64,000 nucleotides of DNA. Origin: an uncultured Methanosarcinales archaeon (GTDB lineage Archaea; Nanobdellota; Nanobdellia; Woesearchaeales; GW2011-AR15). The notes beneath the pieces were generated by a model. It was not told the DNA's origin. It ran no database searches and was given only the letters and a program-made list of their open reading frames with translations. How positions within the stretch are numbered: position 1 is the first letter of the stretch; every line of letters begins with the position of its first letter. Where the stretch lies: NCBI GenBank assembly GCA_964392465.1, contig CAYMPC010000001.1, positions 5,481 to 69,480 of the forward strand, in the 5' to 3' direction. Positions 5,598 through 18,882 of the stretch are shown in pieces. The position numbers and the translations under genes were made by a program.

Positions 5598-6095
5598 ATG
5601 TCAGAAAAAAAATTAAAAATAGGTTGGTTCTCTTTTTCATGTTGTGAAGATTCTACTATTGTGTTTGTGGAATTGATGAATGACAATTATTTCAAATGGA
5701 AAGAGCTTGTTGAATTTAGGCATGTTCGTGTTCTTAAATCTAAAAATGAGCTTTCTGATATAGATGTTGCGTTTGTAGAGGGTGCCATAGCTACAGAAAA
5801 AGACGAAGAATATGTTAAACAAATCAGGGCAGTGTCAAAAAAGCTTGTTGCGATAGGCGCATGTGCAGTCCAAGGAAATCCTTCTGCGCAAAGAAATGAA
5901 TTTAATGATGCAAAAAAGAACAAGATACAAGAGTATATTATAAGGTGGGGGCTGAATCAAAAGGTCAAAACTTTAAAAGAAGTAGTCAAAGTAGATGATG
6001 AAGTAGATGGTTGCCCTATGAGTGAGGAACATTTTTTAGCAGTCTTAAATAAATATTTAAAAGAGTTTGGTATTGTCGGTGAAGGAAATGCATAA
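5598..6095 (+). CDS. [NiFe]-hydrogenase small subunit, minimal NuoB-like form (proximal Fe-S cluster only)
   Basis: CCxxE-type motif (FSFSCCEDS), VAIGACAVQGNP and DGCP motifs matching proximal-cluster ligands. Only 165 aa with no ferredoxin-like C-terminal domain. Overlaps the large-subunit gene start. Confidence 0.7.
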   Translation: MSEKKLKIGWFSFSCCEDSTIVFVELMNDNYFKWKELVEFRHVRVLKSKNELSDIDVAFVEGAIATEKDEEYVKQIRAVSKKLVAIGACAVQGNPSAQRNEFNDAKKNKIQEYIIRWGLNQKVKTLKEVVKVDDEVDGCPMSEEHFLAVLNKYLKEFGIVGEGNA

Positions 6096-7377
6096 TGTAG
6101 ATATTGATTTAACTATTGATCATTTAAGTAAGATAGAAGGACACGGAGAGCTGGACTTGAAAGTAAGAGAAGGAAAGGTTGAGCACATCCATTTCAAAAT
6201 AACAGAAAACAAAAGATTTTATACAACTGCAATAGAAGGAAAGCCTTTTATTGCTGCACCATCCTTGATGTCAAGGATATGTGGTACGTGTAGCATTGCA
6301 CATCTTCTCTGTTGCATTACTTCAATAGAAAAAGCACTTGATTATAAACCTTCAGAACAAATTCAAATTTTAAGAAAGCTAACAATGTATTCTTTAATGA
6401 TAAGAGATCATGCACTCCATTTATATTTTTTCTCGCTCCCAGACGTTTTAGGAAAAGATTCTATTCTTGATTTTGATGACAAAGATACCTTTGAACATGA
6501 CTTAGTCCATCAGGCATTTGAGATAAAAGCAGCAGGTAACAATTTATCAAAATTAATAGCTGGAAAAGCAGTCCATGCACCCTTTCCAATGGTAGGAGGA
6601 TTTACTCATTTTCCTGATAAAGAAGGGATAAAAAAATCAATAGAAGAATTAAAAAGAATAAGGCGTTATGTTTTCAATATAATTAAAGTATTCGAGAACT
6701 GGAATGCAAGGCTTGAGAGAGAAACAACGTTTGTTGCACAAATAACAAATGATTTTAGTTTCATTGGTGGTAATATAAAAACATCTAAAGGTCTCATAAT
6801 TGATGAATCTTCTTATACAGAACACCTTGAAAAGGTAGTTATTCCTTACTCTACTTCAACGGGATATAAATTTGAGGAAGGAAATTACTTTGTTGGAGCA
6901 CTGGCTAGATTGAATTTGAATAAAGAAGCGTTGCATCCAAATACAAAAAGAGATGCAGCTGCATTCCTCGCTCTTTTTCCTAGTAAAAATGTATTTTACA
7001 ATAACTTAGCACAGGCAATAGAGATATTACATTCAATAGATCATTCTATAGAACTTTTGGAAAAAACAGAATTTCTGCCAGAGAGATTAAACCTAATAAA
7101 ATCAAAAAAAGGTTCTGGCGTAGGTGTGATTGAAGCTCCAAGAGGGACATTATATTATAAAGTTGATATAAATGAATCAGGGATGATAGAGCATGCAGAT
7201 GTAATTGTGCCAACACAGCAAAATCAGATTAATATAGAAAATGACATAAAAACCTTTGTAGAAAACAATTTAGATATGGAAAAAGACAATATGGCATTGG
7301 AAATAGAAAAAATAATAAGAGCATATGATCCATGTATGAGCTGTGCTACTCACTTTCTGAAAATAAACTGGTTATAA
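6088..7377 (+). CDS. [NiFe]-hydrogenase large subunit
   Basis: N-terminal L1 motif RICGTCSIAH and C-terminal L2 motif DPCMSCATH followed by a short extension (FLKINWL) typical of the protease-cleaved C-terminus. ATG 6088 has a GGTGAAGGAA ribosome-binding site and overlaps the small-subunit stop (6093-6095). Confidence 0.85.
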   Translation: MHNVDIDLTIDHLSKIEGHGELDLKVREGKVEHIHFKITENKRFYTTAIEGKPFIAAPSLMSRICGTCSIAHLLCCITSIEKALDYKPSEQIQILRKLTMYSLMIRDHALHLYFFSLPDVLGKDSILDFDDKDTFEHDLVHQAFEIKAAGNNLSKLIAGKAVHAPFPMVGGFTHFPDKEGIKKSIEELKRIRRYVFNIIKVFENWNARLERETTFVAQITNDFSFIGGNIKTSKGLIIDESSYTEHLEKVVIPYSTSTGYKFEEGNYFVGALARLNLNKEALHPNTKRDAAAFLALFPSKNVFYNNLAQAIEILHSIDHSIELLEKTEFLPERLNLIKSKKGSGVGVIEAPRGTLYYKVDINESGMIEHADVIVPTQQNQINIENDIKTFVENNLDMEKDNMALEIEKIIRAYDPCMSCATHFLKINWL

Positions 7378-7744
7378 TTTTTTTTATTTCTGAAACCGCC
7401 TTTTTTTCTTCAATTTTTTCAGGAACACATATAATATTAACCTTGTTAATCATCCCAAATTTTTTCATCAATTTTAGATTATAGCCAAGATCAAAATCAT
7501 GTAAAGAGCATATCTTTTGTGTTTCAATTTTTTTAATATCATTTAAAAGTACCACTTCATTAATATCAATAACAGTGTCAATAATAGTTAAATTTTTGTT
7601 TTCTGGATTTATTTCCTCGCTTGGATCCATTTCTATGAATTCAAATTTAGGCATCTCTTTCTTTAGTAAAGGAATTAATCTTATAGGGAGAGAATCTTTT
7701 TCAATAAGGAGATTACCAAAAACATAAACTTTTTCTGTTTTCAT
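7346..7744 (-). CDS. hydrogenase maturation endopeptidase (HycI/HybD family)
   Basis: 132 aa. N-terminal VFGNLLIEKDSLPIRL resembles the GNxLxxDDGxG motif of hydrogenase maturation proteases. Positioned immediately after the large subunit and convergently overlapping its last 32 nt. Confidence 0.55.
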   Translation of the reverse strand: MKTEKVYVFGNLLIEKDSLPIRLIPLLKKEMPKFEFIEMDPSEEINPENKNLTIIDTVIDINEVVLLNDIKKIETQKICSLHDFDLGYNLKLMKKFGMINKVNIICVPEKIEEKKAVSEIKKIITSLFSESE

Positions 7745-15764: not shown

Positions 15765-17489
15765 CTATCTGCTTTTTTTCTTTCCTTTGGAGATAATAAA
15801 ACCAATTAATACACCCATAAATAAACCACCAAGAAAAAACAAAAAATATTCTCTTTTAAGTTTAGGCAGAGGAATTTTGCTTTTTTCAAAATAAATATCA
15901 AGGCTTCCTAACTCAAGCGCATATTCTAAATAAAGAATGCCAGAATACTTGTCGTTCTTTTTGAGAGAGTTGGCATATTCATAATAACTATATGCAAGAA
16001 TCGGAAAAACATCTCTCTTGTTTTGTTTTGCAATAACATTCTTAACACTTTTACTTCTGTCCTCAATAAAAGTATCTAGTTCATCTATTTCTATTGCCAT
16101 TGTATTAAGAACAGTATTTATTTTTGCCTTAGCTATACTAGATTTAAAAAGACAAAGCTCTGGTTCTCCGTTATTATAATCATCATAAGATTCTTTTATG
16201 GCTTTTTTAATATCTTCTGTTCCAGTTGGAAGATATAATTCAATATATTGTACTCTCTCTTCAACTTCAGATATTTTTTTAAGGCAAGAGTCATCTAAAG
16301 CACTTTTACTTAACGTATAAGTTCTTCCTGGCTTATCAAAGAAAATAGCCCAAGATCTCGCACTGTTAAGTCTTTCAATTCCATAAGCTAAATTATAAAG
16401 GCTTGCATTTGTATTATTTGTTGCAATGCTGAAAAGAGCATCGTTTAGTCTTTCCTTAGCTTCAGACAATCTATCTGTGACTACCATATAAGTTTCTAAA
16501 TCTGTAATGGTTTTCAACTTTTTGTTACTGCTAAAATTTTTATATTCATTTACCCTATCAATAGTTCCAATAATTGTCTCTTTTATTTTATCTTCATCTA
16601 ATTTTTCCTTTAATAATCTGCTATATTGTGAATTTAGTGCTGAACCAAAACAATAACTAGCAGCACTATAATATTCGCTTATGTTCAAGGAATTTTCTCC
16701 TTTCTTTAAGTATTCAAAGGACATATTAACATTTATTTCAGTATTAATGTCTGAACTAGTAATATTTACCTCATAAAAAAGCATTTCTGCTCTTTTACAC
16801 ATTTCCTTTGAAATATACCCCATTGTTTCTATATACGATTCACTTATATTGATATTCTCTTCTCTTGTGAATTTTTTTCCTGTTATTTCCTCAAGAGCCT
16901 CCTCAATTTGAGAAACTTCAACAATTTTTAGGCTGTAATTATTTTCATATTCACTGATGTTAGATTCATTCAACCCACTATATTTAGGGATTAGGATTTT
17001 TTGAATTCCTACTTCTGCAGCAGCTCCAATTTTAGGTAATACTCCGCCAACAGGACCTATTATTCCGCCTGTATTTATTGTTCCAGTCATTGTTGTTTTT
17101 GGATCTATTGGTAAATCTTCTAAAACAGAGATGGTTAATACGGCAATAGCAGCTCCGGCACTTGGTCCGCCAACAATGGCACTATTAGCTCTTATTGTGT
17201 AAAAAAAGTCATAACTATTACAGTCTCTTTCCAAAAAATTGCAGGCAACCTCTTTTGCAAACCTTGTTGAAATTTGCGTATCTATCTTTGATAAGGGAAA
17301 AGAATCTATAAATACTCTTCCAGTGCCTTCTTTTATTTCAAGATATAAATCAGCAATACTCCCTTTTTGATTTTCGTCTTCTCCTGATACCGCAAGAAGT
17401 TTTATGCTACCTGTTTTATCTGCATATGTAGAAGAAATAAATAATAAAAAAAACAACAAAACCAAAACATAACTTTTCTTCATAAACAA
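15765..17489 (-). CDS. secreted/membrane-anchored Lon-protease-domain (S16) protein lacking an AAA+ module
   Basis: Signal peptide. Lon proteolytic-domain motif SAIVGGPSAGAAIAV (catalytic Ser) and IGPVGGVLPKIGAAAEVGIQKILIPK (Lys region). A roughly 380-aa unknown domain and a C-terminal TM helix follow. Confidence 0.6.
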   Translation of the reverse strand: MFMKKSYVLVLLFFLLFISSTYADKTGSIKLLAVSGEDENQKGSIADLYLEIKEGTGRVFIDSFPLSKIDTQISTRFAKEVACNFLERDCNSYDFFYTIRANSAIVGGPSAGAAIAVLTISVLEDLPIDPKTTMTGTINTGGIIGPVGGVLPKIGAAAEVGIQKILIPKYSGLNESNISEYENNYSLKIVEVSQIEEALEEITGKKFTREENINISESYIETMGYISKEMCKRAEMLFYEVNITSSDINTEINVNMSFEYLKKGENSLNISEYYSAASYCFGSALNSQYSRLLKEKLDEDKIKETIIGTIDRVNEYKNFSSNKKLKTITDLETYMVVTDRLSEAKERLNDALFSIATNNTNASLYNLAYGIERLNSARSWAIFFDKPGRTYTLSKSALDDSCLKKISEVEERVQYIELYLPTGTEDIKKAIKESYDDYNNGEPELCLFKSSIAKAKINTVLNTMAIEIDELDTFIEDRSKSVKNVIAKQNKRDVFPILAYSYYEYANSLKKNDKYSGILYLEYALELGSLDIYFEKSKIPLPKLKREYFLFFLGGLFMGVLIGFIISKGKKKSR

Positions 17490-17590: not shown

Positions 17591-18238
17591 ATGAAACTTT
17601 TTGTTGATTCTGCGGATATTCAAAAAATAAAAGAGATGGTTGAATTAGGTTTATGTGAGGGAGTTACAACAAATCCAAGTCTAATAAAACAGGCAGGAAA
17701 GGATCATGAAAAAACAATAAAGGAGATAAGTTCTATTATAAATGGTCCAATAAGTGTTGAAACTTTAAGTACAGATGCAGAGGGGATGATAGATGAAGCA
17801 GAAGAATATGTTAAATGGGGCAAAAATATAGTGATAAAAATAGTAATGACCCAAGAAGGAATGAAAGCAGTGAAAGCATTAACAAAAAAAAACATAAAAA
17901 CAAATGTGACATTGGTCTTTACTCCTTTACAAGCATTAATTGCAGCTAAAGCAGGAGCAACTTATGTCAGTCCTTTTTTAGGCAGATTAGATGATTCAGG
18001 TAAATCAGGAATAGAAGTTTTAAAACAAATCAAACAGATTTTTGAGAATTATAAAGTAGAAACGAAGATTATTGCAGCAAGCATAAGAAACATAGACCAT
18101 CTTATCAACGCAGCACTATTAGGTGTAGATTGTGCCACAGTTCCTCCAGCAATATTATCAGAATCTCTAAAACATCCGCTTACAGAAGCAGGTATAAACA
18201 AATTTTTAGAAGATTCAAAAAACTGGAAGAAGGAATAA
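17591..18238 (+). CDS. tal: transaldolase / fructose-6-phosphate aldolase (short Tal/FSA type)
   Basis: MKLFVDSAD...GVTTNPSL...PFLGRLDD and the active-site Lys region. The track ORF begins at an upstream GTG. Confidence 0.85.
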   Translation: MKLFVDSADIQKIKEMVELGLCEGVTTNPSLIKQAGKDHEKTIKEISSIINGPISVETLSTDAEGMIDEAEEYVKWGKNIVIKIVMTQEGMKAVKALTKKNIKTNVTLVFTPLQALIAAKAGATYVSPFLGRLDDSGKSGIEVLKQIKQIFENYKVETKIIAASIRNIDHLINAALLGVDCATVPPAILSESLKHPLTEAGINKFLEDSKNWKKE

Positions 18239-18250
18239 AAATAACAAAAA

Positions 18251-18556
18251 GCGTAGAGCAGATATAAGCCACCTTTTGTAGGACTCAACATTTCTATTGG
18301 CAGTCCTCCTTAACATTCAACTATGCCCCATTATGGGTTGCACAAGCTAGGACTCACCGTTTCATCCTTCCCCTGAAAAATGTCAAAAAGTTATCTCAGC
18401 TTTGTCGCCAAAGCGTTCTTTTTTATCATCCTCTTTCAGGGAGGTCTCGTTTCTGAGTGGTTGCCATCCTTTTCAGGATCTTACTTCCGTAAGTAGCTAC
18501 AATAGTGGGTGGACTTTCCTCAGACTTACGCCCGGAAGTTAAGCTCTGCCCTACAA
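18251..18556 (-). ncRNA. rnpB: RNase P RNA (archaeal type-A-like)
   Basis: GC-rich island in AT-rich DNA. The minus strand reads ...GAGGAAAGUCCACC... (P4 5' strand) and ...ACAAAAGGUGGCUUAUA... (P4 3' strand). These pair with the same 1-nt bulge seen in bacterial P4. AGGAUGAAACGGUGAGUCC resembles the P10-P12 'GGGUGAAACGGUG' element. Terminal P1 pairing is present. Confidence 0.75.
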
Positions 18557-18609
18557 CAAGAAGCAAATCTACTTTATTTTAAAAAACTATTTGTGTTATA
18601 CATTTATAG

Positions 18610-18882
18610 CTATTTTTTGTATATCTCTTTTTCCAGTTGCCTAATTTTAATCAATTTTTTTATATTAGAAATACCCATATACATAAAATAAGATAAGGGG
18701 ATCATTAAAGCAAGAAGAGTAAAACTCGGGGAATAAGGAAAATCTAAAACAACTGTTCCCAAAACATAAATTAATTCAACAATAAAAGTTAAAGCCACAG
18801 ATTCAATCGCTAAAATCATCCTCTCTTTTCTGAGCTGATCTATTTGAAATTTTATCATCTCTGATTTTATATCTGTTTTCAT
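18610..18882 (-). CDS. small hypothetical membrane protein
   Basis: 90 aa with two hydrophobic helices. No known motif. Confidence 0.3.
   Translation of the reverse strand: MKTDIKSEMIKFQIDQLRKERMILAIESVALTFIVELIYVLGTVVLDFPYSPSFTLLALMIPLSYFMYMGISNIKKLIKIRQLEKEIYKK

Follow-up and report, generated by a model that had tools for sequence, protein, structure and literature searches.

The window, by which we mean the whole 64-kb stretch of DNA that was analysed, carries a GC-rich island between a transaldolase gene and a small hydrophobic ORF, and the initial annotation had recognized by eye an RNase P RNA on the minus strand of this island. RNase P is the universal enzyme that removes the 5′ leader ends from transfer RNAs. 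When the entire window was scanned against Rfam 15 at gathering thresholds, with the best match per clan reported, the archaeal RNase P model RF00373 gave the sole match, at 18253–18554 on the minus strand, with a score of 155.6 bits (gathering score 84 bits), an E-value of 3.7e-44 and an alignment that runs through model positions 1–288 of 288. The identification is thus borne out from one end of the model to the other, and the proposed extent of 18251–18556 has only to be drawn in by 2 bases at each end. The genes and signals at the locus are:

17591–18238, plus strand: transaldolase gene (Pfam TAL_FSA, E 1.6e-59)
18049–18291, minus strand: mechanical ORF of 80 aa that clips the RNA end, with no Pfam match
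18237–18250, minus strand: oligo-T tracts, TTTTT GTTA TTTTT, starting 3 nt past the RNA 3′ end, a candidate archaeal terminator
18253–18554, minus strand: RNase P RNA gene, 302 nt, full length, by RF00373 and covariation
18509–18691, plus strand: mechanical ORF of 60 aa that clips the RNA end, with no Pfam match
18573–18586, minus strand: TTTTTTAAAATAAA, a candidate archaeal TATA box spanning −32 to −19 relative to the RNA 5′ end
18610–18882, minus strand: hydrophobic ORF of 90 aa, the upstream neighbour of the RNase P RNA gene

In our reading 18253–18554 (minus strand) is, with a probability of about 97%, the gene for the catalytic RNA subunit of an archaeal RNase P. All five conserved regions of this RNA family are present, reading GAGGAAAGUCC (CR-I), CAGAAACGA (CR-II), GAUGAAACGG (CR-III), GCAA together with AUAGUUGAAUG (CR-IV) and ACAAAAGGUGGCUUA (CR-V), and they are invariant or nearly so across 24 relatives. 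The three motifs from which the RNA had originally been recognized lie exactly where they were reported on the minus strand, namely GAGGAAAGUCCACC at 18521–18508, ACAAAAGGUGGCUUAUA at 18279–18263 and GGAUGAAACGGUG, the element assigned to the P10–P12 consensus, at 18367–18355. The G+C content of the RNase P RNA stretch is 45% compared with 25–35% in the local background, in keeping with the GC-rich island described between the two neighbouring genes, and no ORF of at least 50 aa runs across it, as had also been noted. That the island should instead encode a protein, through either the 60-aa ORF or the 80-aa ORF, has a negligible probability: both ORFs exist mechanically, but each overlaps one end of the island only, neither has a Pfam match, the longer one runs antisense through the transaldolase gene, and the relatives differ from one another by paired, compensatory changes in helices and not by codon-like changes. 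The 60-aa ORF is the one that the initial annotation had called spurious. The result bears mainly on annotation: the locus is best labelled as an RNase P RNA gene (the rnpB equivalent), with both small ORFs at its ends removed. This is an essential housekeeping gene of the ordinary kind, one that any Rfam-based annotation would pick up, and nothing here overturns existing knowledge of RNase P.

The flanks of the RNA point the same way. The candidate TATA box lies in the 55-nt gap past the stop codon of the upstream ORF, and each of the 16 relatives examined has a TATA-like box (TTTATAAA, TTTTATAT or TTTTTAAA) at about −30 to −22. Beyond the 3′ end, T-rich tracts are also found in the relatives. 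A candidate TATA-type promoter combined with a candidate oligo-T terminator makes this appear, from the sequence, to be an independently transcribed gene that ends at or near the Rfam boundaries. The RNase P RNA and transaldolase genes converge, with 14 nt between the transaldolase stop codon (18236–18238) and the RNA 3′ end (18253); as the second T5 tract overlaps that stop codon, the intervening stretch may be a shared bidirectional terminator region.

The P4 pseudoknot is formed by the first and last conserved regions, whose positions are:

18508–18521, minus strand: CR-I, GAGGAAAGUCCACC, containing the P4 5′ strand (18516–18508), in which U 18513 is bulged and A 18510 is the variable base
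18265–18279, minus strand: CR-V, ACAAAAGGUGGCUUA, containing the P4 3′ strand (18273–18266), in which U 18271 pairs with A 18510

The two strands, AAG(U)CCACC and GGUGGCUU, make 8 bp around one bulged U, and 100% of P4 cells are paired in an alignment of 24 sequences; CR-I is invariant in the 24 relatives apart from the variable base. The RF00373 scan and the formation of P4 between the two conserved strands had both been put forward as checks on the assignment, and the RNA passed both. The initial annotation also held that a conserved bulged A is retained in P4, which is not the case: the bulge is a U, residue 42 of the RNA (18513 in the window). U42 is the equivalent of U69 of Escherichia coli, the universally conserved P4 bulge (PMC1874661).

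In the bacterial P4 consensus, as in the E. coli sequence, the strands read GGG and CCC, and it was by reference to these that the ACC/GGU pairing of the window had been called a covariation. The proper comparison is with archaea, whose P4 strands read CCcCC/GGgGG in the consensus of the Rfam alignment; measured against this consensus a single pair departs, C-G having become A-U, so the change is real but concerns one pair and not three. We followed this pair in two samples. A collection of genomes was scanned with the 15-mer GAGGAAAGTCCDCCC, in which the 5′ strand is fixed and the variable position is anything but C; this gave at least 120 loci, of which about 90 were bacterial contigs without a P4 3′ strand downstream, i.e. 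chance matches, and about 27 archaeal loci among the matches listed were used. Among those matches, 25 archaeal RNAs including that of the window have the pair as A-U in 7, G-C in 9, U-A in 8 and G-U in 1. Metagenomes were scanned with both variable bases left as N and the P4-to-P4 spacing fixed at 210–240 nt, and the 90 distinct sequences obtained have A-U (45), G-C (25), G-U (8), U-A (7), C-G (3) or a mismatch (2). The partner tracks the 5′ base: a standard pair is present in 87 of the 89 members of the dereplicated set, compared with a mean of 56 and a maximum of 68 on shuffling, and none of 20,000 shuffles reaches 87. The covariation at this position is real, and is seen in two independent samples. 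As A-U is the commonest state in the lineage (45 of 90), the pair found in the window is no peculiarity of this RNA. The fourth base of CR-V, a highly conserved position, is A in the window where the consensus has G (ACAAAA versus ACAGAA); ACAAAA is common to many relatives and, in the genome sample, occurs only in Woesearchaeota loci among the matches listed. As a separate observation, five bacterial loci from Anaerolineae/Chloroflexota and related MAGs (L012, L019, L064, L088 and L090) have the P4 strands CCGCC/GGCGG. The usual bacterial strands are CCGGG/CCCGG, and those of these five loci resemble the archaeal pattern more than the bacterial one.

The remainder of the structure was drawn helix by helix from the Rfam alignment and projected onto a MAFFT alignment of 24 relatives of 66–82% identity. 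Its elements are:

18545–18554, minus strand: P1 5′ strand, pairing with 18253–18262, with 10/10 standard pairs in the window RNA
18538–18543, minus strand: P2 5′ strand, pairing with 18309–18314; 94% paired, changes on both sides in 4/6 pairs
18521–18534, minus strand: P3 hairpin, 5 bp with a GUAA loop; 92% paired, changes on both sides in 3/5 pairs
18493–18480, minus strand: P8 hairpin, CUUAC-GGAA-GUAAG, with a GGAA loop; 96% paired, changes on both sides in 3/5 pairs
18479–18466, minus strand: P9 hairpin with a GAAA loop; 97% paired, with compensatory changes
18447–18455, minus strand: CR-II, CAGAAACGA, invariant in the 24 relatives and in agreement with the Rfam consensus ACAGAAACGA
18366–18444, minus strand: P12, made up of an 11-bp base, a GA-rich loop, a 3-bp helix, a second GA-rich loop and a 6-bp tip with a GCGA loop
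18357–18366, minus strand: CR-III, GAUGAAACGG, placed by the Rfam alignment and the alignment of relatives
18314–18341, minus strand: CR-IV, comprising J5/15 (GCAA, 18341–18338) and J15/2 (GCAUAGUUGAAUG, 18326–18314), which flank P15
18327–18337, minus strand: P15 hairpin, 11 nt, 4 bp with a UAA loop; 88.5% paired, with 4/4 pairs covarying
18280–18307, minus strand: P19-type hairpin of about 28 nt between the P2 3′ and P4 3′ strands, outside the Rfam consensus

Each of the 18 helix segments is made up of standard pairs in the window RNA. Across the 24 relatives 88.5% of cells are paired, a value that falls to 36–46% when the 3′ partners are slid by 1–3 columns; changes on both sides are seen in 62 of 89 pairs, and not one of 500 shuffles reaches any of the observed measures. 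Compensatory changes occur in every helix except in the unvarying parts of P4, and pairing in the helices with no line of their own above is equally consistent (P5 99%, P7 97.5%, P10 100% and P11 97% of cells). The drawn structure is derived from one aligned sequence, and for this reason RNAalifold was run as well with no structure supplied; it recovers P3, P4, P7, P8, P9, P10/P11, P12, P15 and the P19-type hairpin. Only 61% of P1 cells are paired, as the MAFFT register is poor at the ends, and the relatives show compensatory changes here too, for example GUAGGGCAGA/UCUGCUCUAC versus GUAGGGUAAG/CUUGCCCUAC. The CR-IV columns are likewise invariant or nearly so in the 24 relatives. A single-sequence minimum-free-energy fold (z = −2.9) mis-pairs P2, P4 and P5 and was not used as structural evidence. 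The initial annotation had proposed a fold with P1–P4, P10–P12 and P15 as the point to check, and each of these helices does form standard pairs, with P15 cut down to a hairpin of 4 bp.

In the specificity domain, which includes the P8 and P9 hairpins (18466–18493), the segment made by these two hairpins measures 27–30 nt in 106 of 114 archaeal RNAs. The base and tip of P12 are 95% and 99% paired, respectively. Its middle was at first drawn as five A-U pairs (“P12c”), which are only 32% paired in the relatives, and this was replaced by a register of 3 bp (18424–18422 with 18388–18386) that covaries and is found by RNAalifold. Two GA-rich internal loops flanking a short helix are the layout of a double K-turn that binds L7Ae (PMC5499556), and by analogy P12 is a candidate for such a double K-turn.

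Two features set this RNA apart from the Rfam model, and neither was mentioned in the initial annotation. L15, P16, P17 and P6 are absent, 35 model positions being deleted at P15 in the Rfam alignment, and an extra hairpin is inserted between the P2 3′ and P4 3′ strands. The inserted hairpin consists of 6 bp, a 2-nt bulge, 5 bp and a GAAA loop, with changes on both sides in 10 of 10 pairs and 94% of cells paired, and homologous segments (n = 100) have a median fold z-score of −3.5. Its position corresponds to that of P19 in Bacillus-type bacterial and eukaryotic nuclear RNAs (PMC6565675, PMC12974513). The RNA thus lacks 35 consensus positions, carries a 25-nt insertion relative to the Rfam consensus and reads ACAAAA in place of ACAGAA in CR-V, departures that might be taken for those of a decayed, non-functional pseudogene copy of an RNase P RNA. 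The same departures are common to about 90 distinct relatives and are kept by compensatory changes, as is characteristic of purifying selection on structure; with all five conserved regions intact and the promoter and terminator motifs conserved as well, the chance that this is a pseudogene is minute, and we continue to regard it as the working RNase P RNA gene.

Its place among the archaeal RNase P RNAs was assessed against the named types, of which a 2026 paper recognizes A, M and T only (PMC13462272). Like type A (RF00373; Methanothermobacter, Pyrococcus) it has CR-I to CR-V, a P4 pseudoknot with a bulged U, P1–P3, P5, P7, P8, P9, an interrupted P10/P11 (with an internal loop between P10 and P11) and a long P12 with GA-rich loops, and it is without the bacterial P13, P14 and P18. 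It differs from type A in the loss of L15, P16, P17 and P6, with P15 reduced to the 4-bp hairpin (a P15 domain of 11 nt compared with 45–49 nt in the classic type A RNAs that the scan also picked up), in the extra 28-nt hairpin between the P2 3′ and P4 3′ strands and in the ACAAAA of CR-V.

Type M, known from the Methanococcales and Archaeoglobus, is defined by the absence of P8, L15, P16, P17 and P6 together with an elongated, uninterrupted P10/P11 (PMC1874661, PMC4919922). The window RNA shares with it the minimal P15 hairpin, with no element to recognize the tRNA 3′ RCCA, the lack of an encoded CCA in the tRNA genes of its relatives and, presumably, a heavy reliance on proteins. As the loss of L15/P16/P17/P6 is part of the type M definition, the 11-nt P15 domain and the 35 deleted model positions could be taken to make this a Methanococcus-type RNA. 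We consider this most improbable: P8, whose absence is the main hallmark of type M, is present and covarying, P10/P11 is interrupted and not continuous, the P19-type hairpin is missing from the M. jannaschii RNA (PMC6565675), and the nearest relatives are DPANN archaea and not Methanococcales. Assignment to type T (Thermoproteaceae), in which the specificity domain is almost gone, is contradicted by the presence of P7–P12, CR-II and CR-III. With P8 and the interrupted P10/P11 kept, the RNA is not of type M; with L15, P16, P17 and P6 missing, it does not have the full complement of type A either, and it is structurally between these two named archaeal types.

In its reduced P15 without L15/P16/P17/P6, and in having P19 inserted between P2 and P4 (position according to PMC6565675), the window RNA also recalls the eukaryotic nuclear RNase P RNAs such as human H1 and yeast RPR1. 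It differs from them in that its best Rfam match is the archaeal and not a nuclear model, its P3 forms a plain hairpin that lacks the internal loop seen in eukaryotes, its P12 is of the archaeal GA-rich (K-turn-like) kind and its genomic context is archaeal.

The nearest relative from a genome, among the matches listed, is in a Woesearchaeota MAG (L058; 76% identity over 281 nt), with other Woesearchaeota MAGs next, and the nearest from a metagenome (L156) is 82% identical over 258 nt. To judge from the nearest relatives, the window most likely derives from a small, AT-rich, Woesearchaeota-like DPANN archaeon. Other genes in the window are archaeal, including those for the ribosomal proteins S2 and L34e, deoxyhypusine synthase, a PNO1-like KH protein and a RadB-like protein. 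The 114 distinct archaeal RNAs collected show a bimodal distribution of P15 domain sizes, with 8–15 nt in 92 and 35–50 nt in 20, and an extra hairpin at the P19 position is found in all 94 RNAs with a short P15. Carriers of this combination include Woesearchaeota, one Iainarchaeum MAG and one Bathyarchaeota MAG. In the Methanomicrobiales and some Thermoplasmata, P15 is of the classic long form and nothing is inserted at the P19 position. A short P15 always accompanied by P19 is nonetheless no rule, because the fixed P4-to-P4 spacing of 210–240 nt in the metagenome pattern excludes short-P15 RNAs without P19 and thus partly forces the association; the type M RNAs are counter-examples. Two Thermoplasmatota loci (L029, 2242–2562, and L075, 5272–5585) carry a full P15/P16/P17 of 45 nt together with a P19-type hairpin of about 33 nt, so a full P15 and P19 are not mutually exclusive.

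A survey of 298 archaeal RNAs published in 2026 (“Coevolution of RNase P and the ribosome”, PMC12974513) describes P19 in various archaeal clades as probably ancestral and deletions of P6, P16 and P17 as having arisen independently in several archaeal lineages. The window RNA has P19 and the P6/P16/P17 deletions in common with RNAs of that survey, and the combination of P16/P17 loss with P19 falls within variation already documented; P16/P17-deleted, P19-bearing archaeal RNAs have been given no separate type name (PMC13462272). Our literature search found no paper specifically on the RNase P RNA structure of DPANN archaea or Woesearchaeota. What the present locus contributes is one more covariation-supported archaeal RNA in which the CCA-binding L15/P16/P17 module is lost and P8 and P19 are kept. 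One might go further and see here a coherent but unnamed fourth archaeal architecture, with a type A specificity domain (P8, interrupted P10/P11) joined to a eukaryote-like catalytic domain (minimal P15, natural P19), widespread in DPANN archaea (Woesearchaeota, Iainarchaeum) and Bathyarchaeota, the enzymes of which would be obligate monomers, as eukaryotic RNase P is, and natural archaeal-eukaryotic intermediates in holoenzyme design; we hold this broader proposal to be rather doubtful.

How the RNA might work can be considered by analogy with the cryo-EM structure of the M. jannaschii enzyme, in which CR-I, CR-IV and CR-V make up the core around the P4 pseudoknot, the three-nucleotide linker that joins P5 to P15 supplies an A that stacks on the first pair of the acceptor stem, and T-loops of CR-II and CR-III stack against the elbow of the tRNA; the substrate is measured jointly by these two anchors (PMC6565675). 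The equivalents in the window RNA are the GCAA linker at 18341–18338, CR-II at 18455–18447 and CR-III at 18366–18357. Its catalytic domain comprises P1–P5, the minimal P15 and the P19-type hairpin arranged around the CR-I/CR-V P4 pseudoknot, and its specificity domain P7–P12 with CR-II and CR-III. By comparison with solved RNase P structures the P4 region and its bulged U are expected to hold the catalytic Mg2+ ions, the A of the GCAA linker to stack on the first acceptor-stem pair of the tRNA and the CR-II/CR-III T-loops to stack on the elbow; the linker and T-loop anchors would then measure the acceptor/T arm and set the 5′ leader junction in the active site. On this basis the window RNA is predicted to be the catalytic subunit of an RNase P ribonucleoprotein that cleaves the 5′ leaders of pre-tRNAs. 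It would be expected to depend on archaeal protein partners on both domains, Pop5-Rpp30 on the catalytic and Rpp21-Rpp29 on the specificity domain, with L7Ae probably on the candidate K-turns of P12. A scan of 28 ORFs of the window, which has about 40 more, turned up no RNase P protein gene.

With L15/P16/P17/P6 missing, no base-pairing with the tRNA 3′ CCA would take place, and the small P15 loop of M. jannaschii likewise has no element that recognizes RCCA (PMC6565675). Rfam and ARAGORN found no tRNA genes in the 64-kb window; on related contigs a 3′ CCA is encoded in 0 of 9 tRNA genes (those of the relatives and not of the window), which fits the loss of L15. In five related loci a tRNA-His(GUG) gene lies 2–5 kb from the RNase P RNA gene, a linkage that the window does not share. 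The tRNA genes of L058 (2947–3020), L103 (7102–7176), L046 (5044–5118), L008 (2764–2853), L128 (1327–1398) and L139 (9148–9236) encode a G at −1; the last of these is odd in having a 4-nt anticodon call, “gtgg”.

When the M. jannaschii RNA was given an artificial P19, the enzyme became monomeric and no longer dimerized (PMC6565675). By analogy the natural P19 found here may mean that the holoenzyme is monomeric, which we offer as speculation; should the M. jannaschii result hold here too, such RNAs would offer handy natural models of a monomeric, eukaryote-like archaeal RNase P.

Some further observations were made along the way. Four AT-rich contigs from MAGs labelled “uncultured Methanosarcinales” (L008, L015, L046 and L085) have an AT-rich, Woesearchaeota-like RNA with short P15 and P19. 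The long P15 of the classic kind is what the scan shows for true Methanomicrobia, and the four contigs may be DPANN sequence that was mis-binned. In the window itself, 15765–17489 encodes a protein of 572 aa with a signal or transmembrane N-terminus that has, of Lon protease, just the C-terminal proteolytic domain (Pfam Lon_C, E 2.4e-13) and no ATPase domain. Three adjacent ORFs at 5598–7744 have N-termini that resemble, by eye, those of a [NiFe]-hydrogenase small subunit, a large subunit (with a KIEGH motif) and a maturation protease.
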